A DNA stretch of 61,080 nucleotides, filler included, from Fonticula-like sp. SCN 57-25 (Eukaryota), in the NCBI GenBank assembly GCA_001724245.1. It is 7 parts of 7 records of this genome, joined end to end, with 100 filler letters (N's around TTAATTAATTAA, not from the genome) between each part and the next. Parts side by side here need not be neighbours in the genome. Positions count along the whole stretch, not along the records: positions 1 to 7,063 come from MEDX01000398.1; 6 more parts are not named here. One strand, written 5' to 3'. A program made the translations under genes and the position numbers. This document shows positions 1-49,019 of this stretch, piece after piece. Position 1 is the stretch's first letter, and every line of letters begins with the position of its first letter. The notes under the pieces are model-generated. The model was not told the origin of the DNA and did no database searches. It saw only the letters and a list, made by a program, of their open reading frames with translations.

Positions 1-13
1 AATCACGTGACTC

Positions 14-1275
14 TTAGTCTCTGTTCCTGACGAGTGGCGCGATTGCGACGGCGATAAAGATGAGAAAGCCGACCCACGAGAGCGCCATCTTGACCCACAT
101 CGTGGCCTCACCCTGATCGGGCGCGATCAGCTCCCGCCCATCTTCGCCTTCCCACCACACAGTCAGCAAATTCCAGTCGCTGCTGATCATCCCGAGGTAA
201 AGTGCGCCGGATGCCATCAGCTGATGAAACTTTGTAAAGCTGTACGGCTCTTCACCTTGTGATGGCGATGATGCCGATCGTGATGATCCGGTCGTGTCAA
301 TGTCGGATGCGCTCATGACGAGCGGCGTCGCTTCCTCGCTCGAGTCGCCCTGGCTGAACGCAATGTTCCACAGGGCGATCAGCAGGAATCCCCCGCTCAC
401 CACACGCACGGCAATCTCCATCGCATTCTGCGTCTCCCAAATAGGAAAATCGCATGCGATTTCTGAGCCATCATCTTGGGGCGCGGCGATGATGGCGCTC
501 CACATGAGGAAGGAGACAAAGGCGCCGATGAGCGCCGCGTGAAAGAGGCCGAGCTGCGGCCGGCCTTGCTGCACGCGCGGCGACAGCGAGATCACGATGA
601 GCATCACGACGAGCCCGACAGTGACGCCCGCGAACGCGAGATTGCGCGCGCATCCCCCGTACATCACAAAGATGAGCGCGATCATGGCGGCGCAGAGCGA
701 AAAGAAGAGGAAAGAGGCGAGCAGCAGCAGCGCAAAGGCGGCGCGATCGCCGTCATCGCTGATGCGCTGCTGGTAAGGCGCGACAAACAGATCCGCAAAC
801 TCAAAGAGGAGCGCGACCTGTGCGAGCGAAAATGCCGCCGCGCCCGAAAGGGAGATCGTGCTAAAGGCGCCGAAAAAGGTGTTGGGGATGAACCAGCAGG
901 CAAAGAAGAGCGCGATGACGAGCAGCATCTTGACGGGCCATTTTGATACATGGAGACCGCCGCGGGGATGGCGGCTGTCGGTGGCGCCGACCGTGAGGAT
1001 GGCGAGGATGGCGTGGTAGAGAAAGAGGGAGAGGGAGAGCTTGAAGACGGAGAGGAGGCCGTAGGTGATGCAGGTGGACGAGGGATCGCACAGCCACACT
1101 TCATCAAGCGTCACCGATGCTAGGAATGGCTGAAGTGATGGACTGAAAAGATCAGATTAGAAACAAAGATGACAAATAAAATGTAACTATCGTACATGCG
1201 GGCGACGCCGCAGAGAATGGCAAAGAGGATGTAGCCGAGGCAGTAAAAGAGACGCGTGCGCGTCGAGAGGAGCAT
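14..1275 (-). CDS. SERINC: Serine incorporator (SERINC/Tms1) family multi-pass membrane protein, 2 exons
   Basis: Exon 1 MLLSTRTRLFYCLGYILF from ATG 1275, GT-AG intron 1195-1143, then the long ORF. Family-like segments SRHPRGGLHVSKWPVK, QVALLFEFA, YSFTKFHQLMASGALY..MISSDW, MWVKMALSW; many hydrophobic helices. Confidence 0.85.
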
Positions 1276-1354
1276 GACGGGGGATGCCCGCAGGCCAGCA
1301 AAACACTGTGGTCACGTGATCTGTGTTCAAACCCGTTATCGATTGAACGTAAAC

Positions 1355-2290
1355 GGGTTGTGCGTTCGAGTCCCTCGAACACACGGGCACCTTTGTTGGG
1401 CTGGCTATCAGGGCTCGGATCCACGAGTCCGGCTGTCGGACCTGCATTCAAACCTCCATATATTCTACACTCCTCTATCCATACATAATTACTACAAAAC
1501 AAATACTCTGCTATCTATTTCACAATAAAACATAACTGGCCAGCTCCGCCAATCTTGCCTCCTCCGCCAACCGCATCTCGAAAGGTCTGTGCTGATCTTG
1601 ATGTGCATCAAGCGCAGGCGAAAGTAAGAAAGAGGTCGGAGCGCTTCCGCATGCGAGCTATGGCCATAAACGCCAGCGCAGGGGTCCGTTTAGGGTTCAG
1701 GTAAATGACGACCACGTCAAGCGTCTTCCGTGGATGGTGACCCCCCAGTCCCCCACCAGCATCAGCGAAACTTTCCGCACGTGGAAACACCACCTTCAGG
1801 ACCCGCTCTTCACCCTCTGCGCTTCCTCTACGCTCGAGATTGTCAGACAGTGTGGTTCAGGTAAATGCCACATGACCATTTACAGACTACTTATTCTACA
1901 GTAGCGTGGCGCGCGCGCTGCGCGCGCATGCCCGCGCGTGAAATGGTGAAGTGGCAATTCTGCCTGACGACGCCAGTCGCGCTGCAAACAGTTTTAATGA
2001 TCGCTGAAATGTACGCGTGTGCGGGAATATGGTAATTTAATATATGAATTACCTGGACAGAAGGTGGGGTACGGATGGCGACGATCGATGCGTGTTCACC
2101 CACCGTGCCGCCCAGCGGCCCGGGCCTACATCCGATTCAACGGCGCGCGCTGCCGCTCTCGCAACTTTGTAAGAATTGTGTCGTGCAAGCATGCCAGCCG
2201 CCCCATATGTGGTGCTCATTCATATACACCAATGCCGCTTATGCCGTCAGTCGATCGTGCCCACCCTGATCCCTGATAGCCACAACAATA
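1355..2290 (-). mobile_element. Putative non-autonomous Helentron/Helitron2-like element (internal-deletion derivative)
   Basis: 12-bp perfect inverted repeats tggctatcaggg (1402-1413) and ccctgatagcca (2271-2282). An 11-bp stem-loop at 1360-1384 lies just outside one repeat, and a decayed Pif1-family helicase 3' end points toward it. Ends are approximate. Confidence 0.55.
1520..1850 (-). pseudogene. Frameshifted C-terminal fragment of a Pif1-family (SF1B) helicase
   Basis: Reads RKVSLMLVGDWGVTIH / (G)KTLDVVVIYLNPKRTPALAFMAIARMRKRSDLFL / EMRLAEEARLAELAS across frameshifts. This resembles Pif1 motifs V-VI (PLxLAWAxTIHKSQGxTLD..VIxL..LAYVAxSR). Confidence 0.65.
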
Positions 2291-2444
2291 TGATTCCATA
2301 CGAAATCCACCGCGGTCAATCTACAATAAAGAACCATGTAGGCTGAGTGGCGCCAGGCATTGTTGTGTACGGCGACGACCCATTTGTGCGCGGTGCTCGT
2401 TGGTGCTAGATCGGCGTCAGGGTAGGGTTCTCAGCGCAGGTTTG

Positions 2445-2621
2445 GCGTCTTCTGGTGTCCCTGCGTCTGTCCTGCGTTTCCCTGGCGTTTCCTGGGCGTT
2501 TCCCGCTGGTTTCCCGCGTTTTCGAGAATCGCATCGATTGACAAAAACTGTCATGACGCACATGACCAATCCGTTGGCCAATCATCATTGGCCAATCTCC
2601 ACCAATCATGAGCAACCCAAT
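2445..2621 (+). promoter_or_regulatory. Repetitive promoter-like block: 11-bp-period GCGTTTCC units, then a CCAAT-box cluster
   Basis: GCGTTTCC at 2474, 2485, 2496 with degenerate flanking copies. CCAAT at 2566, 2578, 2592, 2602, 2617 and ATTGG at 2587. Lies about 80 bp upstream of ATG 2704. Confidence 0.5.
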
Positions 2622-2703
2622 GTCAACTCATGAGTTGACGTGTCCGTTATCGTTTGCCCATTTCGAATTTTTCCGAGACTCGCGCGCGACTCGACCTGCG
2701 AAG

Positions 2704-4689
2704 ATGGCTGAACCGCTGGATGCGCAGTTTGATACCTTGGGTCTCAATGACCCTTCGCCCCCGAGAGTGAGCACTGCCAGCGGTAACGAGGCAGACATCA
2801 TTGCGCAGTTGTGGGAGAGAGTGAGAGTGTCAGAGGAGCAGGCGAAGACTGAGAGGGAGGGGCGTCTGGCTGATAAACTGGCTGCCGAGGAAAAGGTGAA
2901 GAAAGAGGCGGAAGCGCGACAGGCTGCCGAGGAAAAGGCGAAGAACGAGGCGGAAGCGCGACAGGCGGCAGAGGAAGCGCGACAGGTTGCAGTGGAGAAG
3001 TTGGAGAAAGAACTAGCGAAGTATCCTGTTTTGATGGAAGCCGGCTTTCCCAAGCTCGGAGACCATGCTCGACCGGCTCAAACGCGCGAGTCTGATGCCA
3101 ACTTGAAAATGAAGCCTGGAATCTTAGGGGAGTGCTCATTTGAGAACTTTGAAAATCGCTTTCAACAAACTACTGAATTCAAGTCGACATCCGCCAGCGC
3201 TCCTGTCGATGGCGAAAGTACCTTGCAAGGATTGGTCACCTCGCTCATAAAAGAGCTGCTGGGAATCATGAAACTTTCGCAGTTCACGACATTGAGCGAG
3301 CCGACACTATCGCTTTTAACGCCCCCAAGCGCCTCACTAGCGGGAGTCGGAAGTGGCAAAACTACAGGATCCGGTTTGGGCAGGCGGGTGGCTCCAGACG
3401 CAACTGTGGTTACCATCAACGGCAAGCCGATAGTCTGTGTGGAGGTTAAATTGCCGCCTGCGGACAATTCTGATGGAGAAGCATTGCAGGCGAGCCACTT
3501 GCGGATTCAGGCGCGCGACTACATGGAGGCCGTCTACCTGGCGTCCGGCGTGAAGGCGCAGTTTGCTGTTATGACAAACTACAAGTACGTGGCATTCCTT
3601 TGGACGGAGGAGGCAAATGAGCTTGCGCAGGCCACCCTTGACATTACGAGTGAGCGGCTGCAAAGCTGGGCGACTGCTGCTGCGCGCTTTCATCCAGAGC
3701 CCTTCCTGAACGTGCACCCTAGCATCAGTACGTCTTCTTTGGCCAAGGGTGCTACCTCTTCTGCAAAGAAAGCGAATGGAGGCACGCCCGTAGAACCAGA
3801 GAGCGGGGTCGAATTTTTTTCGCAAGAGGAAGAGAAGAAGCGGTTTGACTTGGGGAACATGTATGCGTCAGAGTCATATCGCACGGAGGAGGACCCCAAA
3901 GGGGTGAGGATGCTATGCTCGGTGCTGATTAAGGCGATTATTGGCTTCATCTCACCGTACGTCCAGTTCAAGGACGTTGTCAATTATGACCTTGCGACCG
4001 TAGATGGTGTGCCCGTAGATGATGTGCCCGTCTCGGCTCCCCGTGTTTTGTCGAATTTTTCGATAAAACGAGCATTTTTGCAGTTATCCTCGTCGTACCG
4101 TCCATGTATGACACGACAGGAGTACCCCACACAGTTTGACTATGCCCAAATAGTCGATGCACAGACATCCAACTTTGTTGCGTTTTGGTACTTTCACGCG
4201 GGCGCTGACGGACGAACTGTGCTGGCATTCCACAAATCTAGTGTGGGCGTTTTCAAGTTTTGTGTGTTGAAGATACCTTACAAGGTCGGGGACAGTGCCG
4301 ATAACATGGCCAAGGTGGAGGTGGAGCGCTGGAATCGTCTGTACAGCGACGTCTGGCCGAGACAGGACCCAGCGTTTGTGGTGTCGCTGAAAATTCTGGA
4401 AGGTACCACGGTCAGCTGTGCTGCCTTGCCGTATGTCGGCCCTGTGGACAAAAATATGCGCAGCAAGCCCGAGTTCCAGGCGGCCCTCGATAAGGCCATT
4501 GAAAATACTGCACACAAAGGCTTGCTTCACCAAGACCTTCATTGGCGCCATGTCGGGCTTGTTTTCCGCGACGGTGTGATGCGTGTCATCCTCTTTGATT
4601 TGTCGCGAATGGAGGAGTTTGACGCGAACGACACGGACAAGGTTGAAAGCGCTGTGAAGAATATGCGCGATCAGTTGGGATTGGAGTAA
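2704..4689 (+). CDS. Coiled-coil + PD-(D/E)xK (REase-fold) domain + atypical protein kinase; Crinkler/CR-effector-like, intronless
   Basis: Uninterrupted ORF (ATG 2608 or 2704). Nuclease-fold motifs E(STLQ)...APD...VCVEVK...QARDYM. Kinase motifs AGADG, CVLK, EVERW, HQDLHWRHVG, ILFDLS. Confidence 0.75.
   Translation: MAEPLDAQFDTLGLNDPSPPRVSTASGNEADIIAQLWERVRVSEEQAKTEREGRLADKLAAEEKVKKEAEARQAAEEKAKNEAEARQAAEEARQVAVEKLEKELAKYPVLMEAGFPKLGDHARPAQTRESDANLKMKPGILGECSFENFENRFQQTTEFKSTSASAPVDGESTLQGLVTSLIKELLGIMKLSQFTTLSEPTLSLLTPPSASLAGVGSGKTTGSGLGRRVAPDATVVTINGKPIVCVEVKLPPADNSDGEALQASHLRIQARDYMEAVYLASGVKAQFAVMTNYKYVAFLWTEEANELAQATLDITSERLQSWATAAARFHPEPFLNVHPSISTSSLAKGATSSAKKANGGTPVEPESGVEFFSQEEEKKRFDLGNMYASESYRTEEDPKGVRMLCSVLIKAIIGFISPYVQFKDVVNYDLATVDGVPVDDVPVSAPRVLSNFSIKRAFLQLSSSYRPCMTRQEYPTQFDYAQIVDAQTSNFVAFWYFHAGADGRTVLAFHKSSVGVFKFCVLKIPYKVGDSADNMAKVEVERWNRLYSDVWPRQDPAFVVSLKILEGTTVSCAALPYVGPVDKNMRSKPEFQAALDKAIENTAHKGLLHQDLHWRHVGLVFRDGVMRVILFDLSRMEEFDANDTDKVESAVKNMRDQLGLE
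2881..2985 (+). repeat. In-frame tandem repeat (2 x 42 bp plus a 21-bp partial) encoding AAEEKxKxEAEARQ coiled coil
   Basis: gctgccgaggaaaagg(t/c)gaagaa(a/c)gaggcggaagcgcgacag occurs twice, followed by gcggcagaggaagcgcgacag. Confidence 0.9.
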
Positions 4690-4859
4690 AGTACATTGAC
4701 AATGAAACCTAGTAGGGATCGTGCCAGATACCCGCATTTATTGATAGTATTATGAGAGTGACAATAATGAATAAAACCTGTATCCATAGCGCTTGACCGA
4801 TTTTTTATTATGAGAACAACACGAGAAGGGTGCTACCTTGAGGTCAGGAAAAATCTAAA

Positions 4860-5700
4860 AGAAATGTACTGTACGTCGTTGTAATACAAGCATATTATTG
4901 TACTATGGTATACTATAGTACCACAAGTGGCAGTAGTATACTGTATAGTATGTCATAGTATATGACATTGTCCACATGGCATATGGTCCATACCACTTTT
5001 CCTTATCATCATAGTACCTACTGTATACATATGATATGATATTATCATATTATCATATCATATCATATAAATATCATAACTGTATTGATGATGTGAAAGA
5101 AAAGGTCCGAATACAAAACACCCTCGCGGGCAGGCGACACGCACGGCATAAATGTCTAGTGCAATAGTAGTACTAATAATAGTGTAACAGTAGGTAGATA
5201 CAAAAGGCACAGTCACGGTATTGTCACGTGATATTTTACGTGATTATATGGGGGTAGGATGGCATTGGGTCGCCGACGCCGCCGCTGGAACGCTGACGCT
5301 TTGGTGGCTAAAAAGAAAAGTAATAGAAGGTAATAGAAGGTGATAGAAGGAAAAGGAAAGAAAAGGTCAGTAATATGAACAATATGAGCAGCAGTAACTT
5401 GTACCGTATGGTCGTCACGTGATTTTAATAAGGGGCCGGGGGAGATGATGCCCGTGCTCGGTCGCTTGGCAAGGCGCGCCTCTGATATGGTCACGTGAGC
5501 ATTAACAGTATACGTGATAATGAGGAATATGAGACCACGTGGGAAATATTTAGAACAAGAGACACTTCTCATACTACCTCATGATCACGCCCGAACACTA
5601 TAGCGATCTACACTAAAGTCATCTATAATGCACTCTACACTGAACTACACTACACTACATTGTACTATACTCTACTACACTATACATCACTAAACTGCAC
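4860..5700. repeat. AT-rich low-complexity tract with degenerate (ATATC)n, tagta/tacta and (TACAC)n microsatellite-like runs
   Basis: atgatatgatattatcatattatcatatcatatcat at about 5031-5066 and ctacactacactaca at about 5645-5660. Composition is far more AT-rich than the genic DNA. Confidence 0.75.
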
Positions 5701-6826
5701 ATTGTACCATCACTCGGTCATGATCACCCCCACCATCATCCCCAACCAACATCCCCCACCTATCCCTCAACCTTTCCACCCCTAACGTACCTGGCGATGA
5801 GCATGGCGTCGGTGCAATTCTCGTCCCAAATGCATCCACGTGGCCGACTTCCTCCTGGTCGCATGCCGTGTACCGACCCTCCCACGTGGACACCTCTGCC
5901 TCGTCAATGTCGTCCAGGCGCGGGATCCCGGCAAAGTCCATGCTCGCCGATCGCCGATGGCAAAAGCACGCGCACGCTGACGTGGGCGGTGGTGAGGCGC
6001 CGTCCGTTGCGCAGCAGGAACACTGTGCGAAAGAGAAAAGCTGTGAGAAGGCGGTGGGGAGCGATGACGGGGGGAAAAGTTTCGCAGGGGGGCGTACGAA
6101 AGGGGATCGAGGCCGAGATGTTGATGGCCGGTGCAGGTGGTGCGCCCAGGTGTCCGCGTTGGCAGCGAGCGACAGCCGCAGCTCTTAACAAAGAAAGTGA
6201 GCGCGCAGCACAGGCGGGGCGGCGGTTCGCGAGGCGTACCGGCATCAGCCGACCACACGGATGCTGACGTCGTTGGCGCCACGCTCGATACCGACATTCT
6301 GATCTCTATAAAATCGCTTCGTCTCTAGCTCGCGCGCGCGCACGCTTGCTCGTCACCTTTTCTCTTCTTTTCCTCCTTCTCTCTTGCTCGCGCTCGCGCT
6401 GTCTCTCGCTCACTTCGCCGCGGTGATCGCCCTTTGCACGGCCCCTCTTTCCCTCGGCCGTCACCGTTCGCACACCGTGGTCGGCGGGCCCAAGTGAACT
6501 TGGCTCACTATGTCACTTTGTATCATATGGCGGTTAATGGCATTTAGCTAGATCACGTGACCGATTTGGGGTGCTGACGTCATCGGCGAGCGACGTCATC
6601 CGTGACGTCATCGCGTTTGGCAGCACGCTGTGGCGGCGGGACAATCCGGTGGGGACGCTTCTCGGTGCTTCGACGCCCGCTTGGTCATCAGTGCCGCTGC
6701 GTAGAGGCGACAGGACTTGCTGTGCTTGATCTTTCACGTGCGCTGAGCAGCACTCGCCGGCGGCATTTCTAACGTGAATCTTTGCAGAAGCGCCGTTTTC
6801 CCTTTTCTTTCGTTGTTGTTCTTACC

Positions 6827-7063
6827 ATGGGTGATGCCATGGTGGACCAGTACGTGATCCCCCTCATCTTTCCGCTCTTTCCCTTTTTATACACCGTTGA
6901 CTGACGCGGTGTCCGCTCGCCAGGTGCATTGCACTGCTGCGGGATCTCAAGACCGTCCCCGAGAAGGATGTCAAGGAGCTCTGCAACCGCGCCCGCGAGA
7001 TCCTGATCGAGGAGAGCAACGTCCAGATTGTCGATCCCCCGGTCGTCGTGCGTCTTTCTCTCT
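6827..7063 (+). CDS. PPP4C: PP2A-family Ser/Thr phosphatase catalytic subunit, most like PP4; 5' part only
   Basis: Spliced reading MGDAMVDQ|CIALLRDLKTVPEKDVKELCNRAREILIEESNVQIVDPPVV. GT donors at 6850 and 7048; truncated by the contig end. Confidence 0.7.
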
Positions 7064-7163
7064 NNNNNNNNNNNNNNNNNNNNNNNNNNNNNNNNNNNNN
7101 NNNNNNNTTAATTAATTAANNNNNNNNNNNNNNNNNNNNNNNNNNNNNNNNNNNNNNNNNNNN
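7064..7163. other. Artificial contig linker
   Basis: N-run with central TTAATTAATTAA, 100 bp. Confidence 0.98.
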
Positions 7164-10100
7164 ACTCACCGTGTTGTAGGCCATTTTCCTGTCGGAAACG
7201 GGCAAGAACGCCATCACGCGCGACTTTGGTGCGACCGTGTCGCCGCTCGGGTCAAAGTCCATGATTCCCTTTGCGCGGCCGCTCGCCTTCAAGCGCACCA
7301 ACGCCAAAAAGTTCCTCTTCAAGGCCGAGGAGTGCGTCTCGCACATCTGCTCTACCACGCTCTACCAGACGGAGGATTCCGGCGCCACGTTCAAGGCCAT
7401 CAACACGTACGTGTACGATTGCTTCTACGCCGATTCGCAGCAGCTCGTCATCCGGGACCGGTCTGCGATCTACTGCACCGTGTCAAAGTCCAAGCGGGGC
7501 GACATTTACGAGCTGAGCGACTTTGGCCTCATGTACTCGAGCGACGACTTTGCCACTGCCAAGGAGGCGCTCAAGGATAGCATGTTTGCGATGGCCACCG
7601 GCCAATACGCCGTCGCGGTCTCGGTTCGTACCAGGCGCTTTGATATTAGTGGCTTACTGATGCGTCCCAGAACGGAGGCAAGTTTTTCGTCAGCGAGGAT
7701 GGCGAGATGTTTGCAGAGGCGCAGCTCCCCGAGGAGGCATCGTTTATCCCGAGCGTACGGATGCATTTTTGCGTAACTAGTCGTTTGCTAAAGCAGAGTA
7801 GTCTGTTTCGGTGCACGCGACGTCGACTTCGACTGTCCTGTTCATCAGCATGGAGACATTTGTGCGCCAATCGGGCGACCAGGGCTTTGGCGTGCTCCTC
7901 AAGTCAAACGGCAACGGCACCATCTTTGCCGCCTCGCTGCCCATGCTCGACTTTATCGGCTACGATGCGCAGACGTCGCGCATCGAGTCGCTCGAGGGCC
8001 ACCTTATCAGCAACAAGATTGTCAACAAGCAAGAGTTCCTTACCACGGGCGAAAAGAAGATTCAGACTGTGTTTTCCTTTGACGACGGAGCCCGCTGGCG
8101 CCCGCTCATCGCGCCCGAGGCGGACTCGCGCGGCAAGCCGTACCCCTGCGGCGCCAAGACGTGCTCGCTCCACCTTCACTCGGAGCTCACGCGCGCGGCT
8201 GACGCGTACGCACGCTTGCTTAAAACGCGGGGTAAACTAATGCGTGTGGCGTAGGAACGGCTTTTCGGCGGAAACCGCTGTCGGCGTCTTCATGGCCAAC
8301 GGTAATGTCGGCGAGCACCTGTCGGACTACGCTTCGTCGAGTACTTTTTTGACCACGGACGGTGGCATTTCGTGGTCCGAAGTCCGTAGCGGCCCGCACC
8401 GCTTTGAGATTGGCGACCGCGGCGCCATTCTCATGACTGTCAACGACAAGGATGCGACGACGCACGTGAGGTACGCGACGCGCTTTTTGAAATTTCCCCG
8501 GTCTGACTGTGCGCAGATATTCGTTTGACAATGGCAAGAACTGGTACGAGCACAAGTTCTCCGAGACGCCGGTCAAGGTCAAGTGGCTCACCACCGTGCC
8601 CGACTCGACGACGCGCAAGTTTTTGCTCTTTGGCAAGGCTGACGACGAGTACGTGGCTGTCCAGATCGACCTCACGCGTCTCGATGCGCCTCAGTGTACG
8701 CACGCATGCTTTATTACCTTTTTTATTAATGCTTGTGCAGGCACGGCCGACGATTTCGAGTACTGGGTCCCGCCGGCCACCGATGACCAGTGCATTCTCG
8801 GCCATGAAGTGCGCCTTTCTTTCAACCCCGCTTTTTCCTAATGATCCGCAGGTTGCGTACCACCGCCGGAAGGCAGCGTCGTCGTGCATCATCGACGAGC
8901 CGTTTACCGACGTTCGCACAAAGGTGGAGCACTGCGAGTGCACGGCCAACGACTTTGAATGGTGCGCGGTGACCACTTGTCATTTGCGCTGACATGTCGC
9001 AGCGATTTCGGCTTTGAGTGGGACCTTTTTGGCGACGCGTGCGTTCCTGCCGAAGGCTACGTTCCGTACTGCGAACCGGGCACCGTCTATTACGCGCCCT
9101 CGGGCTACCGCATGATTGCCGGCGACACGTGCGAGGGCGGCCTCGAGCTCGACAAGCCTGTCCTTAAAGAGTGTGACCTCGGCGGCGGCTCGGACCCGAA
9201 CCCGACGGTCCCGCCTGGCCAGGTCGGCGTCTCCAAGGTACGCGCATCCATTTTATCTACGTTTGCTGACACTCCACAGACGGTTTTTGATTCTCCTGTG
9301 GTTTCGCGCGTCGAGTTTGACAACTCGAATGTGCTTGTGTGGCTGCTCAAGAATGGCGACGTGATGCGCAGCGACACGCAGGGCATCATGTGGCACAAGT
9401 GCGAGATTGGCGGCTACAGCGCTGACGGCAAGGTTATGTTTGCGGTGCCGAACCGCATCGGCGCGCTCTTACGTCCCGCTGGACGTTGACATCAAGACGC
9501 GCGCCCCCGAGGCGAGCTTCCTCGTCCACCCCAAGGACGAGTCTCAGTGGCTCTTTTCCGGCTCGAGCTGTACCGGCAGCCGCTGCCGCACCGACGTCTA
9601 CTACACCGCCAACAAGGGCGGCACGTGGCGCTCGCTCGCAGAAAACGCGCCCAGCTGCGTGTGGACGGCGGTCGCCATCCCGTCGGCCACGGCGGACACG
9701 ATCCACTGCGTCGTCGACGGCTCTCTGCAGCGGTACACCGGGTCGCGCCTGGCGGAAACCATCATGGACAAGGCCTTGGCTATCGTGCCGGGCGACGGCT
9801 ACGTGGNCAGTCAACGGGCGACGAGGCGTCCGACTTTTTCCTGTCGTCCGACGGGCGCAAGTTCATGGATGCCGAGCTTCCCAAGGATGTTTCCATCGAC
9901 AACAAGGTGCGCTAGCCGATGGCCGACTTTATATAGATTATTCCTAACACACCCAAAGTACTACGTGTTCCCGCGGTCGACCACCGGGTCCATCTTTTTG
10001 AGCGTTCTCGCAAAGCCGAGCTACAATGTGGGCACGCTCCTGTCGGCGTACTCGCGCGGCGATCACTATTACTTTTCAAAGTCGCTCGCCAACACGCACC

Positions 10101-11693
10101 GCACGCAGTACGCTCGCTCGATTTCCTCCTCGTGTCTCACCGCTTTGATAGGGACAAGCTTGACCACGAACAGCTGCGCAACCTCGAGGGCGTCATCATT
10201 GCCAACCGCGTGAGCAACAGCAAGGGCGTCCTGTCCGACAAGGAGTCGCCCGTCTTGCAGACGCTCGTGACGTTTGACAATGGTACGCGCGGCTGCTTTT
10301 CTAATTAGTTTTCTAAATATTTTGCGCAGGCGACAGGTGGCTTCCTCTCACTGCGCCGACGCGCGACGTGAACGGCAACCCGATCAAGTGCTACACGACG
10401 AGCGGCTGCTCTCTCCACCTGCACGGCGCCGCGTCTCCCAATGTGCAGCCCAACTTTGAGATGGCGAACCCGTCTGCGCCCGGCCTCGCCATGGCGGTGG
10501 GCAACACGGGCGCTTCGCTGAGCGCGTACGACCAGGGCGACACGTACCTGACCAACGACGCTGGCCTGACGTGGCGCATGGTGCGCAAGGGCGCGCACAT
10601 GCACGCGTTTGGCGACCACGGCGCCGTCGTCGTCATCGTCAACGACGAGGACCCGACGAGCCACGTCCGCTACTCGTGGGACATGGGCCAGACATGGGCC
10701 AACTTTGACTTTTTGGACGGCGACAAGGTGCGCTCAATCTCATGCTGAACGTACATTATACTGACGCGTATTTACCCCACAGATGCGCGTGTCGACGGTG
10801 CGCCACCGCAAGAATTCGACGTCGCTCATCTTCCAGCTGACGGGCACGCTCCAGTCGTCGTCCAAGCTCGCCATGATTGCGGTCGACCTGTCGTCCACCG
10901 CGCCGGACGCGTGCGCCAAGTCGGACTTTGAGGAGTGGAACCCGGCCGAGTTTACGAGCTCGCGCTGCCTGCTCGGCCACGAGCTCACGTACCAGCGCAG
11001 GAAGGCGTCCAGCGCGTGCTTTATCACCGACGCGTTCCTCCCCGCCAAGCCGGTCGTTACACACTGCCTCTGCGTCCTCGACGACTTTGAATGGTTCGCC
11101 ATTGAGTGGTGTTTGGACCATCTGCTAACGCGTTGCCATGCAGTGATATCGGCTTTGAGTACAACACCGAGGGCCTCTGCGTGCCGTCCGACTCGTACGT
11201 GGCCCCGGAGCAGCCCGAGGGGTGCGAAACGGGCGAGCCTTACAACGTGCCGTCGGGGTACGCATACCTGTTCTTTCTTTGGTTGCTTATTTACGTTTTT
11301 GCGTGCAGCTACCACAAGAACCCAATTGACACGTGCGAGGGCGGGCACGACTATGCGGCGCCGGTCGTCCGCTACTGCAACATTGACGCGGCGCCCACTG
11401 ATGCCGCGCCGGGGACAAGCGAAGGCGGTCTCAGCGGCGGCGCGATTGCGGCGCTCGTGCTTGTCCCGCTGGCAATCGTGGGTGTCGCTGCGGCCGGCTG
11501 GTACTGGGTGACGCAGCGCTCGCGCCAGCGGCGGTCATGGGACTTTGACAGCGACATGTGCAGGTGCGAGGGCATTTTTTGCATGGTTTTTTATTTGCTC
11601 ACGGTGGCGTGCAGCGGCTGTTCATGGCCGTCGTGGATGCCGTTCTGCGGCAAGAGCCGCGACCCGACCGATCTACTGATGGACGACTACTAG
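7164..11693 (+). CDS. VPS10: Vps10/sortilin vacuolar sorting receptor with two Vps10 domains, TM helix and short tail; 5' truncated, many introns
   Basis: Asp-box/BNR motifs (SFDDGARW, TTDGGISW, TNDAGLTW, SWDMGQTW). Two copies of CSLHLH..A.G..MA.GN.G and of the 10-Cys module (CxCxxxDFExDxGFE...GY....DTCEGG). TM AIAALVLVPLAIVGVAAAGWYW; tail ends DPTDLLMDDY. Confidence 0.93.
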
Positions 11694-11815
11694 CTCAACA
11701 ATTTCAATAATGCACAGTGGAATGTAGAACGTAGGTAGTTTCGCAGGTATCGCTGCGCGAATAGAACAGTAAAATAAAATTGAAAGATAATTACAAATAA
11801 GAATCAAAAGCATAG

Positions 11816-12572
11816 CTACCTGCGGCGCTTGCGCGGCTGGTCGTCGCGCTCCTCGACCGCCGTTGTTGTGAGGGTGACCGCCTCGGAAGGAGCCGGCCGC
11901 CCCTTGGACTTGACCGGCGAATTGGCCGCCAAGGTCTGAAGCGAAGGCTCCACCACCTGAATGGTGGCCCACATTTCTTCCACCGCCAGCTACCGCAAAA
12001 TGCACGTTAGCCCACCGCACCAAGGTCCATTGGAAGCGAACCTTTTCCGACGCCTCGGCCGCCTTGAGAAGCACATTAGACGCGTCAGCGTGCCGCTTCA
12101 TTGTCTTTTCCATGCCTGTCATAATACCCGTAATCTGCGTCGCCATAGCCTCGTTTGACTTTGTAATATTCTTGAGCTTTTCCGAGACGAGGGCGATCAT
12201 TGCGCGGCGGGATGCCAGCGTGGCAGCGGCTACGCGCTCCCCGGCATCGAGCGAATCCCAGGATGACTTGCCGCCGGTCTTGGCTGCACCGCTCCCAGTC
12301 GAATGTGCCGTAACAAGCGCATCCATATCGTTTAGCCGCTCGATCAGCCTATGCTCCGCCGCAATGTTGTCAAACTCTTCCAGCGTGCTCTCGCGCAGGA
12401 ACGAATTGATCTCCTTCATCGCGCCATTCAGTTGCGTGCGGGAAATCTCTTTGGGAAAGCAGTCTGCCACCGCATCGGCCGTGCAGCTCTTGAGCATCGT
12501 GTCAATCATCTTGCCGAGCGCCTCGCGCATCTTTTTGGCGCGCGGCCCAGGCACCACCTCGGCTTCCGACAT
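11816..12572 (-). CDS. NNF1: Kinetochore Mis12-complex subunit Nnf1/PMF1
   Basis: RAKKMREAL...DCFP...FLRESTLEEFDNIAAEHRLIERLNDMDALV pattern followed by coiled coil. One intron near 12040-11990; ends QPRKRRR*. Confidence 0.7.
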
Positions 12573-12599
12573 GATGTTTGATTTGGCGGCGTAGAGGGA

Positions 12600-12611
12600 T
12601 TTCGCGCCAAA
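12600..12611. promoter_or_regulatory. Overlapping double E2F-type site TTTCGCGCCAAA
   Basis: Exact 12-mer 28 bp upstream of the NNF1 ATG, in a 98-bp divergent intergenic gap that also has a CCAAT box. Confidence 0.55.
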
Positions 12612-12670
12612 AAAAACGAACGCCAATCAGCTCGGCGTCAGCAAATCAGACGAATCAGAAGAAATCAGTC

Positions 12671-16886: not shown

Positions 16887-16986
16887 NNNNNNNNNNNNNN
16901 NNNNNNNNNNNNNNNNNNNNNNNNNNNNNNTTAATTAATTAANNNNNNNNNNNNNNNNNNNNNNNNNNNNNNNNNNNNNNNNNNNN
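16887..16986. other. Artificial contig linker
   Basis: N-run with central TTAATTAATTAA. Confidence 0.98.
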
Positions 16987-17961: not shown

Positions 17962-19204
17962 TCACCGCCGGCCTCCGCGCATCGATCCGCCCGACTTGGG
18001 CTTCTTGTTCTTATCGTTGGCCTTGGCCGGAGCCGGGCGCTTGGCGCCGCCAGAGCTGCCCGTCGAAGGCGTCACCGTAAAGAAGCCGTCCAGGCGACCC
18101 TGCGCCGCCGAGCCGCGCGTCTTTTCGATGCGCTGCACCGTGTTGCGCACGCGAGCCTCGCTATGGGAGCAATGGTCAGAAGTGGGGACATCTTGCGGTC
18201 CAGACGTACCTAAAGCCCTTTTCCTTGACCAAAAAGTCGACGAGGCCTTCCTCGTCCGGCGCGCCCCACTTTAGCTGCACAGAGTGTAAGGCAACATTAG
18301 CGCTCTAGGGTGCACGCACATCTATCGTCTCGGGATCGGTCACCTCGGGGTTGACAAAGAGCGCGCGGGCCTCAGTGTACGGCCACGAGTCCGGCACGAT
18401 AAACTTGGTGTCCTCGAGGTTCTTGATGACCTCTTCAATGGTCGAAAACTTTTTGATATAGTCGAGCGCCTTCTTGGGACCGATGCCCGAGATGGAATCG
18501 CAGTAGTCGCAGCCAAGAAGAATGCAGAGGTCGATGAACTGGTTCATCTCCATCCCGAGCCCCTCCAGAACCTTGGCCAGGTGCACCTCTACGATCGGTT
18601 CCTTGCGCGCCTCGCTAAACGTAAGGTGACGCAGCAGGACCGGCGAGCCGAATGTGAGCGAGTCCATGTCCTCCGAGCCCGTGGCGTAGACCTTGCCGGC
18701 CTTGCACAGGGCGGCGCACTGCGCCTCGGCCTCTCCCGGCGCCTCGACGTACGGGACGCCCATGAGCGTCAGCAGGCGCTTGCAGTCATCGTTGTGCTCG
18801 CGCGTCACGCGGACAGTGCGGCGGCTGAACTTGTCCATGTCGGCCGCGTCGCCGGCCTCGGTCGCCTTCTCAAGCGACTCCTCGGCCTCGCGGCGCTTCT
18901 CCGTGCGCTTCAGCAGCTCGCCAGACTTCATCGTCGGCGGCTTGCCATCAAACACGTACACCGGCTTAATGCCGTTCTCCATCATGCGCACGGTGCGGTA
19001 GAGCATGCCCATCAGGTGACTCGTCGTCTCGCCCGCCTCGTTCGTCAGGACATTGCCCTCTGAGCGCACCGCAATCAGAAACTGATAGATGCTCATCGAC
19101 GCGTCAATGGCGACCTTGCGGTTAAAGTACGCCTTGATGTCATTGTTCTTCATCGCGTTGCCCGCGGCATCCGCGATCACCTTGCTCAGCTGCTTGATGC
19201 CCAT
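17962..19204 (-). CDS. FEN1: Flap endonuclease 1, 3 exons
   Basis: [42 protein letters not shown] and PIP box QGRLDGFF. Confidence 0.98.
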
Positions 19205-19331
19205 CCTCGCAGAAGCCCGGTCAGAAAAAAAGCGCGCCAATCTTTCAAACTCAGGGTGGTAAAATTACCCACCCTTGAGCGTATGGGCGAAAGACAAGGT
19301 AGCTTGAATATACTCCTCTCGATTGTTTTCG

Positions 19332-25326: not shown

Positions 25327-25426
25327 NNNNNNNNNNNNNNNNNNNNNNNNNNNNNNNNNNNNNNNNNNNNTTAATTAATTAANNNNNNNNNNNNNNNNNN
25401 NNNNNNNNNNNNNNNNNNNNNNNNNN
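25327..25426. other. Artificial contig linker
   Basis: N-run with central TTAATTAATTAA. Confidence 0.98.
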
Positions 25427-33356: not shown

Positions 33357-33456
33357 NNNNNNNNNNNNNNNNNNNNNNNNNNNNNNNNNNNNNNNNNNNN
33401 TTAATTAATTAANNNNNNNNNNNNNNNNNNNNNNNNNNNNNNNNNNNNNNNNNNNN
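33357..33456. other. Artificial contig linker
   Basis: N-run with central TTAATTAATTAA. Confidence 0.98.
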
Positions 33457-34293: not shown

Positions 34294-35226
34294 CTAGCCG
34301 TCTATTGTGGCCGGAGCCCGCACCGCCGGCTGTCCCCCGGCGTTGTACTCTTCCACCTGCCTAATGTTCATATTTATCCGATTTATCCTGACGTAGTCGT
34401 TGATGCGGCTGTCGGGCGCGTCAGGGTTGTCCCAGAGCTCCTGCGGCGTCGTTCCGGCAAAGATCTTTGGCACGCCGTGGTAGGCGAGCCGCGCCTTCCC
34501 ACGCATGACAACGCAGTCGCCCGATCTGAGAAGAAGCGCGGCCGGCTCCACGTCGCGCGTTAGGCCTCCCACCAGGAACACGGCCGCGTTCCCAAGACTA
34601 AACGACAGGAGTGGCGCCACGTGGTCTCGCTCGCTGTAGTCGACGTGACCGCTCAGTGTGTCTTTCGGACCGTAAAAGTTGATGATTGCGGCTTCGGCGG
34701 CGTAGGTGTCGTGCCCAAGCGCGCGCGCAAAGCGGACGCAGAGGTCAGCGAGGTCGTCGGGGAACGGCTCTTCGTCGCCGGGCGTGTACGCGTGCGCCGT
34801 CCAGTCGTAGTGGTACCCTAGCGTCGTCCACCGAAGACGACGCATCAGATCTGCATACGTCGCGGAAGGACGACCAGGCTTCGGAACAGCCTCAACGTCT
34901 TTTTGCGACAGCGCCCACAAACTAGAGTCGCCCCGCATAGGAAGAACGTACTCGGCATGAAGGTTTGAGCGGCTTCCCGAGTACCGCGTGAGGCATGCCG
35001 CTGTCCACGCACGCTGCTCTTGCATCGAGAGAGCATCCGGGATCAGCACGACGCCTGGAAATGCAACCAGCTCATACGCCACGAGGTCAAGGCCGATCAG
35101 CGGCAAGGGAGTCGCAACGGAGGGGTCAAGTGGCCCACGCCGCGGATCAAGAAGCGATGGCGGGGCAGACTCGAGCGATACACCTCGGTACAGACGTTCC
35201 GCCGCCCGGAACGCCGTGCCCGCCAT
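34294..35226 (-). CDS. ALKBH1: AlkB-family Fe/2OG dioxygenase ALKBH1
   Basis: LRWTTLGYHYDW, AEAAIINFY, SGHVDYSE, LRSGD, YHGVPKI, RINMNIRQV. Confidence 0.95.
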   Translation of the reverse strand: MAGTAFRAAERLYRGVSLESAPPSLLDPRRGPLDPSVATPLPLIGLDLVAYELVAFPGVVLIPDALSMQEQRAWTAACLTRYSGSRSNLHAEYVLPMRGDSSLWALSQKDVEAVPKPGRPSATYADLMRRLRWTTLGYHYDWTAHAYTPGDEEPFPDDLADLCVRFARALGHDTYAAEAAIINFYGPKDTLSGHVDYSERDHVAPLLSFSLGNAAVFLVGGLTRDVEPAALLLRSGDCVVMRGKARLAYHGVPKIFAGTTPQELWDNPDAPDSRINDYVRINRINMNIRQVEEYNAGGQPAVRAPATIDG

Positions 35227-35532
35227 GATGACACGCAAACTGCAAACTGAAATCGGATGTCTGCAAACCACAGAAGTGACACTGTCACACTTGCTTCTGC
35301 CATGCTGTAGAACGAGTTGTAAAGCACATTAAATAACTCCCTTTTAGCGTGTGGTTGATAGACAGTGACCTTTTTGGCCAAATGCATTTTGCGGTCTGGT
35401 CGGACAATACTCTCAAGCAAGCATGTGATAAATATCCATTTGTAACATAATAAATGAGCTTGATGCGAATATACAGGATTCAATGACAAAACAGACTGGA
35501 ACAACAAAAAAAAACGAGCAATCAGCGCGCCG

Positions 35533-37795: not shown

Positions 37796-40154
37796 TCACT
37801 GCGACCCGGCGACAGCCGCCTGGGGGACGATGGCCATTGGCTCCTCCTCGCCCGCCGAACCGGCCGCGTCCGTGACGCTGTCGACGATCATTGCGTCGTC
37901 GTCGTCTGCCTGCCCCGCGCCGCTGCTGTTGCTGGCGGTCCCCCTCTCGCCGCCGCTCTCCTCCCGCTCGACGCCGTCGGGCGAAAGGTCGCCTGGCGAC
38001 TCTGCTTTCCGCTTTGTCCGCTGGCTCGGTGGGTGTTGGCCGGCCATCGGCGGGAGCGGCGGCAGACCCGCTGCCGCTGCCGCCGCCGCGGTCATGGCCG
38101 CCTGGTGCTGCGGCGGGACGCTCTTTGGCACCGTCGCGGCTCCGGCCGTTCCCGCCGCGGCCGCCTTGGCGCCGACGACGCGCCGCTGCAGCATCGTCTT
38201 GAGCGGCATTGCGCTGAGCTTGAACTGCTGCGTGCGCTGGTGCGCGAGAACGGCGGCAGCAACGTCGTTCGAACCGGCGAGGCCAGTGGTGTTGGCCTGG
38301 GCGCCGCTCTGCGCTGCCGAGCCGCTGCCCGACTGCTCCATGGCGGCGTCGGCGCTGCCGCGGATGAGCTCCGCGCCGACCTTGCTGATATCCCTGAGGT
38401 TGATCATGTCCTTGTTGTCGCGCAGGAAGGCGGGCGACGCGAGCGGGAGGTTGAGGTCCTGCTTGTTGCGGAGCCACGAGTGCGAGAGCACCTGGTTGAT
38501 CGTGTAGCGGAGGCGCGCGTCGACCTGCAGGCACTTTGTGATCAGGTCCTTGGCCTCCTCGCTGACCGTCGCGCCGGCCTCATTACCCTTGGGGAACGAA
38601 TAGCGGCCGTGGCGGATCTTGTCCTTGATCGACATCATGTTGCCGTTGCGGTCGTCCTCGTCGTTGTAGAACGGGAAGCGACCAAACAGTACGATAAAGA
38701 TCAGGCAGCCAAGCGCCCACACGTCGACAGCCATCGTGTACTCGGGGCTGCGCTCAAACATCTCGGGAGCCATGTACTCTTTCGTGCCGCACGGCGTCAC
38801 AGCGACGCCGTTCGTCAGCAGGCGCGCGAGGCCAAAGTCGCCAATCTTGACAGTGTCGTCGTCGCGGCTCAAAAACATCAAATTCTCAATCTTGATATCG
38901 CGGTGCGCGACGCCGCGGCTGTGCATGTACGAGATGCCGCCTGCAGTAGGCGATAAGCAAGAGAAAAAAAAAAGAAAAAAAAGGCGTACGTGCTACTTGC
39001 AAGATGATGCGACGGCCGTCCTCTTCGGTAAAGAATGACTACGCACACATGTCAGTTTTCGTTCGCGCCCCATTTCGCGCGCGCACCTTTTCCGAGATCC
39101 TGTCAAAGAGATCGCCTCCCTTCATGAGTTCCATGACGAGGACAAAGTACTGCGGCGTGACAATGTACTCGTGGAGCGCGACAATATTCTTGTCGTCGAG
39201 CATTCCGAGGATGCGCGCCTCTGTCTGGACATTCTCGACCTGCCTCTGGGAGAGCTTTGCGCGCTCGACAACCTTGATTGCGTACTGGATCTTTGTGTTG
39301 ACGTCGACGCCGCAGTACACGCGTCCAAAATACCCGCTGTTGATCTCGCGGAGCAACCGGTAGCGCTCAACGCCCGGCAGCACATTCACCTGAAGGCGGC
39401 TCGTGAGCGACATGATGGTCGTCGGGGGGCCGGGAAGCGGCGGTCCTTCGGGCCAAAACTCGACCGGCGGCGACGGTGCAGGCGACGGCCGGCGGGCAGA
39501 TGCGACCCGGGTGACTGACGCGGTGACGAGAAGCGGCGGCGACGACGCAGCGGAAAGCAGGTAGCGGCCCTGCTCCGAGTCGACGCAGCGGACGTTCAAG
39601 TGTGGGTGGCGCGCGCGCGGCTCGGCAGAAACCGATACAAGAACGGGATCCTGCTGCTGCTGGTCGCGGGGGACGGCTACCCAGTAGGGGCCGTGCTGCG
39701 TATCAATGCAGCGGAGGCCGAGGCTGCGGGCTCCTGGCGACGGCTGCTGCTGCTGAAGGTACGACGAGTATGAGCAATCAATGTCACACACACCATAACT
39801 TCTCACAATCCCTTCCCCATCCCCTTCTTCCTCTTCCTTCTCGCCGTCGGCACAAAACGACCCATACATGGTGGCCGCGCTGCCCTTCCTCCCACCCGCG
39901 TCCGTGCCGACCGGGCGCTTCTCCGGCCGGCACCCCTCCTCGCCAATCACAACAAGCTCAAATGAAAGCGAGTCAAGCGAGAAGGAGGGCGGAGTGCACG
40001 TGGACGCCAAAGACGACGGCGGCCGCGATGCGGCCCCGGCGCGGCCAAACAAGCCGTCGTCGGGACCCGCGGAGCCATCGCTCGACGTCCCACGCGCACT
40101 CGCCGCAGACGCACCACCTCGGTGGGGGCGAGGGCAGCAGATCGACCCAAACAT
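37796..40154 (-). CDS. CAMK-group Ser/Thr kinase (Rck2/Srk1/CaMK1-like) with long N- and C-terminal extensions
   Basis: SGYFGRV, YAIK, MELMKGGDLFDRI, HRDIKIEN, DFG, TPCGT.EYMAPE, DVWALG; two introns around 38940-39090. Start uncertain. Confidence 0.9.
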
Positions 40155-41797
40155 CACACGATCCTCTCAGCACCTCGGCAAATCAAGCACAAGGGCCGAT
40201 CGGCATGCGCACACGCCAACCAGCGGCGGCGGCAGCCACAGACAAAATCGCAGCTGCGGCGGCCAGCAACAGCGGCGCGCACGGTAAACACACGAAGCAG
40301 GCGTCACACGCACACACAGAGAGAGAGCGGAAACAACACACTAGCCCCTTGACGAAACAACCAACCGATCCCCTGACGCATGCGCATCCCTCCCCGCCAT
40401 CGATGCGTCCCACAGTCACAGGGGAAACACATGCACAAACAATGCGAAAAGAGCGCGAAAAAACAGCCGACGGCGCATTGCCCACACGATCCCCTGGTGG
40501 CACGATCCCCTTCGACCCCCCCCCCCCCCCCCCCCCCCCCAACCACNCCCCCCTGCAGGCACGTACTTGGAACGGGTCAAAGACGCCGATCGACGCCGCG
40601 GATCTCGCAGAGGATGCCGCAGACGAGACAGCAGAGAGATAGATGCGCGGCGGGGAAGCGGGCCTAGCTTCGCACAAGGTGTCTGCTTGCAAAGCTGACA
40701 GAGCCATGGCGTTTCACGATGGTCAACGCCCGCAATCAAGGCAATGGGAGAAAAAAGTCTGATGGGAGAGAGAGAACAAGACAAGCAGAGCAGGAATTAA
40801 AGCACTCCTGAAATACAGCGCACAGCCACACACACACACAGTAAACAAAGACGGTCACGAAAGGAACTTTTCGAGCGGCGAGATCGTGCGCAACGACGGT
40901 CGTCACGGGAAATATTCCGGGAGCAAAGTGAGGGGGCATGGGACGACAAATATGCACGCTATGACTCGTTACAGCCCAAAGTTGCGGAATAGCAACTTCT
41001 TAATTCTTAACACAGAGCGATTTGCACGGAAACGGGCGAGCAAGGGCGGCAGTCAACTTTCACCTGATTCCTTGCAACACCGCACTCCCGCGGCAGACAA
41101 AATACGACACAAGCAGGGGACACGAATAATGGTGCGCAACAAATTTCCACAAGAGGAAAGCTTAACTACGACCCACGCCCACTTTTGAAGCTAAAGAACG
41201 AAAAGATCTAGTACCTTTTACCTCCCTGCCGAGAAAAGTCGCCGGATGCGCAGCGCAGTTGCTGCTTACCAAGAGCGCGCCAGTCAAGAACCAGGGTGCA
41301 CACCACCGTTCCACTCGATTAGTTGTAAAATTCTGGAGGGGTGGTTGTTTTTGTCCCCCCGCATCAAGTGATTAAAAATAAAACGTGACAAGCAGACACA
41401 AACATGGTTACGCAACGATGTGTGGCGGTGAAAGAAGAGCTCCAAGTCTTGTTCTCTGCATTGCTTCTAAATTTTACATGTAATTTCAATGGCTAGAGCC
41501 ACTGTTGCAACTGAAAATTGTCAATTTGGAGGCAGCGGAACGGAGAGCCGTGCGTTTTAGCGAAACAACGCAAAGCAGCAAAGACTATAGCATGCAGCGG
41601 ACTCTGTGTGCTCGCCTCTAAGCGCGTCGAGTTGACTGGCTGGTATTTGGCCATTTGCGGTTTCTCTGGGGACACACTATAAAAGGCATTGCTGCATATG
41701 GGGAGGCCTCAAGTTAAAATGCGGAACAATCCAATCGATCCTCATTTTGCCAGAGCCAATAAATCAAAAATTGCAAACTGCCGTGCAAAATCCCAGT

Positions 41798-41897
41798 NNN
41801 NNNNNNNNNNNNNNNNNNNNNNNNNNNNNNNNNNNNNNNNNTTAATTAATTAANNNNNNNNNNNNNNNNNNNNNNNNNNNNNNNNNNNNNNNNNNNN
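41798..41897. other. Artificial contig linker
   Basis: N-run with central TTAATTAATTAA. Confidence 0.98.
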
Positions 41898-48919: not shown

Positions 48920-49019
48920 NNNNNNNNNNNNNNNNNNNNNNNNNNNNNNNNNNNNNNNNNNNNTTAATTAATTAANNNNNNNNNNNNNNNNNNNNNNNNN
49001 NNNNNNNNNNNNNNNNNNN
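48920..49019. other. Artificial contig linker
   Basis: N-run with central TTAATTAATTAA. Confidence 0.98.

Follow-up and report, generated by a model that had tools for sequence, protein, structure and literature searches.

A stretch of DNA from Fonticula-like sp. SCN 57-25 (assembly GCA_001724245.1), which is 61,080 nucleotides (nt) long with its filler and is called the window below, was analysed around a gene located at positions 2704–4689 of the plus strand. Its protein product, designated P0001, belongs to the catalogued Pfam family DUF5898 (PF19250), and its predicted architecture joins a long N-terminal helix, a likely nuclease domain of the PD-(D/E)XK fold and HsdR type, and a minimal, atypical kinase domain at the C-terminus. 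The preliminary description of this locus had proposed a fusion of a restriction endonuclease (REase)-fold nuclease with an atypical kinase, and this fusion is supported by relatives of P0001 that pass the Pfam models HSDR_N and HSDR_N_2, by a profile match to the kinase CaMK1G and by kinase fold matches. The family membership, the domain order and the conservation of all core catalytic residues in both domains were observed, and both domains are inferred to be active enzymes. The features of the gene are listed here with the residue numbers of P0001.

2704–4689, plus strand: coding sequence of P0001, one uninterrupted frame of 661 codons plus stop, open from 2566.
2788–3015, plus strand: long predicted helix, coiled-coil-like and rich in Ala, Glu, Lys and Arg (residues 29–104, AlphaFold2).
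2880–2976, plus strand: tandem repeat of 42 bp in 2.3 copies that codes part of this helix (Tandem Repeats Finder (TRF), 92% matches, score 166).
3196–3693, plus strand: likely PD-(D/E)XK nuclease domain of the HsdR type (residues 165–330), assigned by element order, conservation and the HSDR_N and HSDR_N_2 matches of relatives.
3394–3450, plus strand: putative catalytic motif P231-D232 ... E247-V-K249, from a position check and conservation.
3508–3522, plus strand: QxxxY motif, Q269-A-R-D-Y273, in the family consensus GQxxDY.
3694–3837, plus strand: disordered linker (residues 331–378, pLDDT below 50).
3841–4155, plus strand: conserved pre-kinase region without a cysteine cluster (residues 380–484), with a helix at 398–415 and short strands.
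4156–4686, plus strand: minimal protein-kinase-like domain, DUF5898 (residues 485–661).
4270–4272, plus strand: beta-3 (VAIK-equivalent) lysine K523 in 'CVLK', invariant in 38 sequences and aligned to the kinase Lys.
4318–4320, plus strand: E539, the partner of K523, invariant in 38 sequences and aligned to the kinase Glu.
4528–4551, plus strand: catalytic loop H609-Q-D611-L-H-W-R-H616, with H609 and D611 invariant and R615 conserved in at least 90%.
4597–4605, plus strand: DFG equivalent D632-L-S, with D632 invariant; the profile alignment pairs it with the CaMK1G DFG.

The exhaustive homologue search, which covered 1.84 billion representative proteins, returned 188 relatives at E≤1e-3 and 15 at E≤1e-10, many of them with two or three matching stretches across both halves of P0001. 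The nearest relative, P0003 (838 aa), shares 44% identity (E=5.7e-106) and is the only one above ~35%, with two 50%-identity clusters close by, while the identity to the other members of alignment A1 was 18–27%. DUF5898 was matched in all of the 139 relatives scanned with Pfam, 136 of them above the cut-off and three (P0057, P0061, and P0131) slightly below it. P0001 itself scored 42.8 bits against a curated cut-off of 28.9 (E=5.5e-11, residues 497–619, profile positions 2–108 of 109), so that the family name put forward at first proved to be a real match. The Pfam model spans ~109 residues of the kinase and leaves the nuclease half outside; P0001 carries both signatures of the family, that of the kinase and that of the N-terminal domain. 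An alignment of 38 full-length members indicated that E247, K249, K523, E539, H609, D611, and D632 are invariant, and that at least 90% of the sequences keep E171, D232, G500, G503, W543, and R615. The family consensus reads HxDLxWRHVG at the catalytic loop and FDL at the DFG position, and (P/A)D...GVVEVK...GQxxDY in the N-terminal domain of most full-length members. All the motifs first reported for this protein (PD..EVK..QxxxY, HQDLHWRH, and DLS) were recovered in P0001; the kinase residues among them, which had been regarded as unusual, turned out to be the consensus of DUF5898 and not a peculiarity of this gene.

The kinase domain was recognised by both profile and structure comparison. 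When the family profile was compared with the Protein Data Bank, human CaMK1G was matched at E=6.5e-8 with the glycine loop, the beta-3 Lys, the alpha-C Glu, the HxD and the DFG all aligned, and the corresponding core elements of P0001 are present as G500, G503, K523, E539, H609, D611, and D632. The full-length AlphaFold2 model had a mean pLDDT of 73.9, and Foldseek found at least 500 solved matches to it at E≤1e-3, those listed being all kinases. Kdo/WaaP appeared as a secondary Pfam match in 13 of 38 members at E≤1 and in 14 of 91 at E≤0.01, with P0018 above the cut-off. The C-terminal domain is thus a minimal, atypical kinase like those of Kdo and RIO type, and what it phosphorylates need not be a protein. 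Upstream of it, L404 and K410 of the pre-kinase region are invariant in alignment A3, and the disordered linker is enriched in Ser and Thr (23% vs. 13% in the whole protein).

For the N-terminal domain the evidence is of several kinds. E247 and K249 are invariant and E171 and D232 conserved in at least 90% of the aligned sequences, and in the model the putative catalytic residues fall on strands 233–238 and 241–248 and on helix 171–188. A domain-only model of residues 160–335 (pLDDT 74.8) gave a helix, three strands, a helix and two strands, which is the alpha-beta-beta-beta-alpha-beta-beta order expected for the fold. HSDR_N was the recurrent second family of the relatives, matched by 20 of 38 members at E≤1 and by 19 of 91 at E≤0.01; P0046 exceeded its cut-off (26.1 vs. 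25.1) and P0025 exceeded that of HSDR_N_2 (31.3 vs. 25). The HSDR_N stretch of P0046 and the HSDR_N_2 stretch of P0025 were aligned with residues 212–293 (E=4e-8) and 222–308 (E=2e-10) of P0001, respectively. With Foldseek, the best solved match of the nuclease model was the type IIG restriction enzyme BpuSI (E=0.06, probability 1.00, TM 0.48, 131 columns), followed at low probability by Wolbachia CinB, BsaXI, lambda exonuclease, Hjc, EcoR124I HsdR (0.28–0.33), and Cas4. In the viral structure library, PD-(D/E)XK nucleases dominated the matches listed. Of the Foldseek comparisons, that of the full-length model gave a strong outcome for the kinase, and that of the nuclease model a weak one. Since relatives' Pfam passes, their alignment to P0001, the predicted element order and the fold matches combine, the N-terminal domain is, by transitive homology, likely rather than proven to be a PD-(D/E)XK nuclease of the HsdR type. 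A single-sequence search of solved structures with P0001 returned nothing at E≤1, and the NCBIfam scan gave weak local hsdR matches in two relatives only. A language-model search with residues 110–335 had as its top hit (0.92) a Zoopagomycota cluster with 31% DUF6826 and 10% Pkinase_fungal, which is a weak lead only.

Directly before Asp232 lies a disordered Ser/Thr/Gly-rich insert (residues 201–230, positions 3304–3393, 30% Ser+Thr), which is missing in most relatives; insertions at this place were also seen in P0003, P0061, and P0136. At the N-terminus, the 76-residue helix was predicted with block-mean pLDDT values of 77–93. The coiled-coil tandem repeat of the preliminary description was recovered inside this helix, and a separate repeat search (D2) found its copies 93% alike. 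Ala/Glu-rich N-termini are also present in P0003, P0006, P0007, P0034, P0061, P0111, and P0144; such repeat helices occur in several DUF5898 members, which are a minority, and the N-terminal repeat regions vary across the family.

The spread of the family is patchy: beside many further eukaryotic records, it takes in one giant virus, one sponge, one chytrid and one amoeba. The named relatives are the sponge Amphimedon queenslandica, the amoeba Balamuthia mandrillaris and the chytrid Rhizophlyctis rosea. In the viral library BFVD, the protein A0A2U7UEV6 of Pandoravirus macleodensis (536 aa, annotated DUF5898) matched the nuclease model at a probability of 0.99 and a TM of 0.48, and therefore the family, with the same N-terminal domain, occurs in amoeba viruses. 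Among DUF5898 members P0001 is one of the most divergent; the repeat-encoded helix is shared by some of them only, and the insert before the Asp by few. In a quick, unfinished tree of 53 rows, its terminal branch of 2.67 changes per column was the longest; the rows had been picked by motif pattern, which left out P0003, P0092, and three of the named relatives (P0017, P0049, and P0161). When 185,579 genomes of bacteria and archaea were scanned twice with three peptide patterns, 35 and 401 stretches were hit, none of which was confirmed, the reach of this search being that of the patterns used. No match to the PADLOC defence models was obtained among six proteins. When P0001 and alignment A1 served as queries, a word-indexed homologue search returned the protein's own cluster only, the repeat region having probably supplied most of the search words.

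The coding frame itself was examined for its limits. The stop-to-stop frame at 2566–4689 has 707 codons, more than any other of the window's 49 frames that reach 200 aa, and contains in-frame ATGs at 2608, 2620, and 2704. Four CCAAT motifs at 2566–2606, spaced by 10–14 nt, abut the 2608 ATG on its upstream side and may be a promoter element, and TRF reported a 14-nt period at 2566–2597. Because these motifs lie so close to the 2608 ATG, 2704 is favoured, rather than settled, as the true start. A public protein, P0002 (689 aa, from a 5434-nt contig), starts at the 2620 ATG; its two differences from P0001, G384E and H604L, fall in the C-terminal half, and P0002 probably represents another allele or strain. 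As P0003 aligns with positions 3025–4686 in a single frame with no break, the gene is intronless over at least its last 554 codons (residue 108 onward), in agreement with the 2-kb intronless open reading frame (ORF) first described. The GC content of the ORF is 0.51–0.56, and its GC at third codon positions (GC3) is 0.61, compared with 0.62–0.83 for 11 other coding frames (0.62 for Nnf1); this position at the low edge is suggestive at most.

The surroundings of the gene are set by the make-up of the window and comprise the following features.

7064–7163, 16887–16986, 25327–25426, 33357–33456, 41798–41897, and 48920–49019: six identical linkers of the form N44-TTAATTAATTAA-N44, with stops in six frames.
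14–1156, minus strand: serine incorporator (Serinc) gene (Pfam Serinc, E=1.2e-57, profile positions 46–430 of 434).
4700–5700, no strand: AT-rich low-complexity spacer, GC 0.35–0.46, with TATAGTA/CATATGA runs.
6901–7062, plus strand: gene of a Ser/Thr protein phosphatase, of which the first exon is present, cut by the end of the piece (STPPase_N E=0.002, below cut-off).

As these linkers show, the window consists of at least seven joined pieces of 7–12 kb, with GC contents by piece from 0.529 to 0.621, and the contiguous surroundings of the P0001 gene are positions 1–7063 only. The picture of an accessory island among intron-rich housekeeping genes was accordingly not confirmed: on this piece the neighbours are the Serinc gene, which is one frame of 380 codons, and the start of the phosphatase gene. 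The AT-rich DNA reported downstream was seen again (GC 0.35–0.43 over 4501–5500); no Pfam match was found in the frames of the spacer and no Rfam match in it, and an Rfam scan of 1–7063 gave nothing. Within the spacer were noted an imperfect 44-nt palindrome at 5005–5092 and four CACGTG motifs around 5226–5540, and a GC-rich stretch without a recognisable gene lies between it and the phosphatase exon. Between the Serinc gene and the ORF, the 14-mer GGTTCAGGTAAATG occurs at 1694–1707 and 1854–1867, 160 nt apart, and resembles a splice-donor context (CAG|GTAAAT).

These surroundings bear on whether the gene arrived as cargo of a mobile element or as an insertion derived from a giant virus, which would explain its lack of introns, its lower GC3 and the AT-rich flank. 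Such an origin could be read from the 2-kb intronless frame, set beside a Sortilin/VPS10 gene with many exons on the next stitched piece, from the GC3 of 0.61 together with ~1 kb of AT-rich flank, and from the Pandoravirus protein with the same domain. It is opposed by the scan of the flanks, in which 19 of the 27 upstream frames of at least 40 aa (1157–2565) gave chance-level Pfam matches only, in which neither these frames nor four downstream ones matched a transposon family, and in which both flanks lacked any match to a transposase, Rep/helicase, integrase or reverse transcriptase; by the absence of an inverted-repeat pair or terminal repeats bracketing the ORF; by the Serinc neighbour, which is likewise one long frame; and by the closeness of the GC3 to that of Nnf1, the context being limited to 7 kb. 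We consider this origin highly improbable. The same results leave the proposed upstream transposon relic without a family, and they lend no support to the idea of rolling-circle mobilisation with shared inverted repeats, as no transposon domain, no bracketing pair and no second copy of the gene were found in the window.

A quieter role must be weighed on the same ground: P0001 could be a domesticated cellular enzyme of DNA repair, recombination or nucleic-acid processing, with the kinase as a regulatory or substrate-priming module and with no part in conflict. Serinc and phosphatase neighbours without signs of mobile elements agree with it, as do the retention of all catalytic residues across deep divergence and the public variant P0002, which differs at just 2 of 661 residues. 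Against these stand the patchy list of named taxa with a giant virus among them, the very long terminal branch (2.67, the longest of the 53 rows in the quick, unfinished tree), the single relative closer than ~35% identity, the GC3 at the bottom of the range of the 11 frames, and the variable N-terminal repeat regions of the family. On balance, a domesticated enzyme appears distinctly unlikely.

Elsewhere in the window, on pieces that need not adjoin this one even when next in order, lie the Sortilin/VPS10 gene with several short introns (7237–10213, plus strand), the gene of the Nnf1 kinetochore protein (11673–12626, minus strand), an XPG/FEN1-type nuclease (18305–19264, minus strand), a 2OG-Fe(II) oxygenase (34294–35328, minus strand), a conventional protein kinase N-lobe (39039–40166, minus strand), and a rhodanese-domain protein (46742–47746, plus strand).

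Among studied proteins, the Spok killers of Podospora have a similar design. Spok proteins carry, in the parts of the source available, a coiled coil whose coding repeat is variable, a PD-(D/E)XK domain with HsdR as its best match and a QxxxY motif, and a Kdo-like kinase, in this order; in Spok3, K240A in the nuclease ends killing and D667A in the kinase ends resistance (PMC6660238). According to the accessible text of PMC9972908, Spok1 with an inactivated kinase causes DNA fragmentation in both E. coli and yeast. P0001 resembles Spok1–4 in its repeat-encoded coiled coil, in its HsdR-like PD-(D/E)XK domain with QxxxY, in its disordered linkers and in a C-terminal Kdo/ELK-like kinase with a catalytic Asp, all held in a single polypeptide with both domains. 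In a whole-protein language-model search, ranks 2 and 3 were fungal clusters with SPOK2_N in 95–98% of their members (score 0.95, 196–200 of 256 features shared), and rank 4 was a DUF5898 cluster. The two differ in that the region from helix to nuclease has ~60 residues in P0001 and ~130 in Spok domain 1, and in that the kinase of P0001 ends sooner after the DFG.

On this basis P0001 might be a true distant homologue of Spok, acting in its own host either as a meiotic driver that kills gametes or spores or as a vegetative toxin-antidote element. The order of parts shared with Spok3, from repeat-encoded coiled coil to Kdo-like kinase (PMC6660238, as far as its available text goes), speaks for this, together with the SPOK2_N clusters as the top named language-model look-alikes at 0.95. 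It is countered by the Cys/His cluster of Spok, which is missing in 185 of 185 proteins (see below), by SPOK2_N (PF27653), which occurs in 0 of the 49 relatives listed with precomputed Pfam domains, by the description of Spok homologues from Ascomycota only, and by the occurrence of the gene in one copy, without a giant transposon in the 7 kb that surround it. SPOK2_N was also absent from the local Pfam scan of P0001, a scan that may predate the model. True Spok descent is unlikely.

The Crinkler/RHS-type (CR) effectors, such as Phytophthora CRN8, offer a second comparison, which was made by architecture only: they too couple an REase-fold domain to a kinase. The kinase of CRN8 is a conventional protein kinase, whereas that of P0001 is of the truncated DUF5898 type. 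Roughly one in six CR C-termini is an REase+kinase module, in which toxicity is ascribed to the REase and its regulation to the kinase (review PMC5289972, in the portion available, citing Zhang et al. 2016). What defines a CR protein is a toxin module joined to a header, either a ubiquitin-like one with LxLFLAK or one of the other CR types, and P0001 has no header: neither an LxLFLAK nor an HVLVxxP motif was found in it, nor a Crinkler Pfam match at E≤1, which bears out the missing header noted at the outset. One relative, P0092 (567 aa), showed a sub-threshold match to the Crinkler header at residues 22–58 (E=0.0069), which hints that nuclease-kinase modules of the DUF5898 type can follow a Crinkler header. 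P0001 might accordingly be a headerless CR toxin, either because the header was lost or because a different route delivers the protein into another organism; this view is favoured by the frequency and presumed toxicity of the REase modules in that review (PMC5289972, same portion) and by the sub-threshold match of P0092. It is disfavoured by the lack of any header match or header motif in P0001, by the rarity of the hint (1 of 139 relatives, 17.6 bits vs. 24.6, in an N-terminus that no other relative among the 185 proteins shares), and by the fact that neither a lineage-specific multi-copy expansion, which in CR genes often lies next to transposons, nor a Helitron association was seen in the window and among the relatives found. 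We judge a headerless CR toxin to be decidedly improbable. Of the CR-like label given to the gene earlier, the resemblance in REase+kinase architecture is fair and gains a little from P0092, while membership of the CR proteins does not follow from it.

Two further likenesses are more general. The nuclease resembles the N-terminal nuclease of HsdR in its D...ExK and QxxxY, the latter being likewise noted in HsdR and Spok3 by the available text of PMC6660238; it differs in that no helicase or translocase motor follows it in P0001 and in its eukaryotic setting. The kinase shares with Kdo/WaaP and RIO kinases the glycine loop, the beta-3 Lys, the alpha-C Glu, the HxD, the Asp equivalent to that of DFG, and the lack of an activation segment and a substrate-binding C-lobe, from which it departs by its fusion to a nuclease and by His instead of Asn at D+5. 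P0001 is filed under DUF5898 only; it is likened to Spok and CR proteins as a demonstrated member of neither. In the searchable literature one paper naming DUF5898 was found, which gives it in a list only, simply as a member of the kinase clan (PMC9758233, in its available part). With the family already in that Pfam clan and its design matching that of the studied Spok proteins, the claim of an undescribed system was overstated.

Taking these data together, we favour, at a probability of roughly 55%, the reading that the P0001 gene is intact and intronless and encodes a helix, an HsdR-type nuclease and a minimal Kdo/ELK-like kinase that work as a kinase-restrained nuclease in genetic conflict. 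In such a protein the helix at residues 29–104 would probably drive self-association, and the nuclease would be the damaging activity, directed at nucleic acid within the cell that makes the protein or within its nucleus. The kinase would restrain the nuclease by phosphorylating either its own protein or the nuclease target, and the Ser/Thr-rich loop 201–230 beside the catalytic Asp and the linker 331–378 are candidate phosphorylation sites. This single-polypeptide logic of poison plus restraint would be that of Spok, where it is experimental, and that of CR modules, where it is proposed. The role may be defence against invading DNA or that of a selfish toxin-antidote element, rather than that of a housekeeping enzyme. 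This conflict-gene reading follows from the patchy spread and from the failure to see a header or export signal, signal peptides having been considered with no dedicated tool.

Several results weigh against the favoured reading. P0001 itself reached HSDR_N with E=0.85 and 9.9 bits, under the cut-off of 25.1; the fold search of the nuclease model in the solved and viral libraries gave no match at E≤1e-3, and unrelated folds, for example family II pyrophosphatases, were mixed among its matches; and a nuclease-only profile (A5, 11 rows) compared with the sequences of solved structures had a best E of 0.52, which is chance level. In the kinase, the residue at D+5 is His616 and not the canonical Asn, which some relatives have, and D632 is followed by just 29 residues with one helix, leaving no activation segment or substrate-binding C-lobe; with so small a C-lobe and this His, the domain may not phosphorylate proteins at all. 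The link to Spok consists of language-model features and shared design only, and a relaxed pattern of the Cys/His cluster that Spok proteins have upstream of their kinase, C-x3-C-x13-C-x5-H-x7-H, was found in 0 of 185 proteins, the six cysteines of P0001 being scattered. The gene, which looks single-copy in the window and lies between ordinary genes, fits a domesticated function equally well. Finally, no measurement of activity, toxicity or phosphorylation was found in the searchable literature for any DUF5898 protein.

A wider and more tentative proposal, possible but doubtful, is that the DUF5898 proteins, more widely spread through eukaryotes and giant viruses, are sister to the Spok killers of fungi, that is, single-protein toxin-antidote genes in which the nuclease kills and the kinase protects. 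If this were true, Spok-like selfish or defence elements would exist in amoebae, chytrids, sponges and their viruses, and the P0001 gene would be a live example.

What was known beforehand is a catalogued family, DUF5898, of which P0001 is a divergent member; its architecture is like that of known conflict proteins. What the analysis adds is that full-length DUF5898 members can now be read as nuclease-kinase fusions in which both putative catalytic centres are conserved, and an uncharacterised DUF thereby gains a testable hypothesis of a nuclease plus a restraining kinase, which is the main value of the finding. If P0001 works as Spok does, single-gene poison-and-antidote elements would reach far beyond the examples from ascomycetes, into other eukaryotes and giant viruses. 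Should it prove unlike Spok, it would still offer a clean case for how a minimal kinase controls a restriction-type nuclease.

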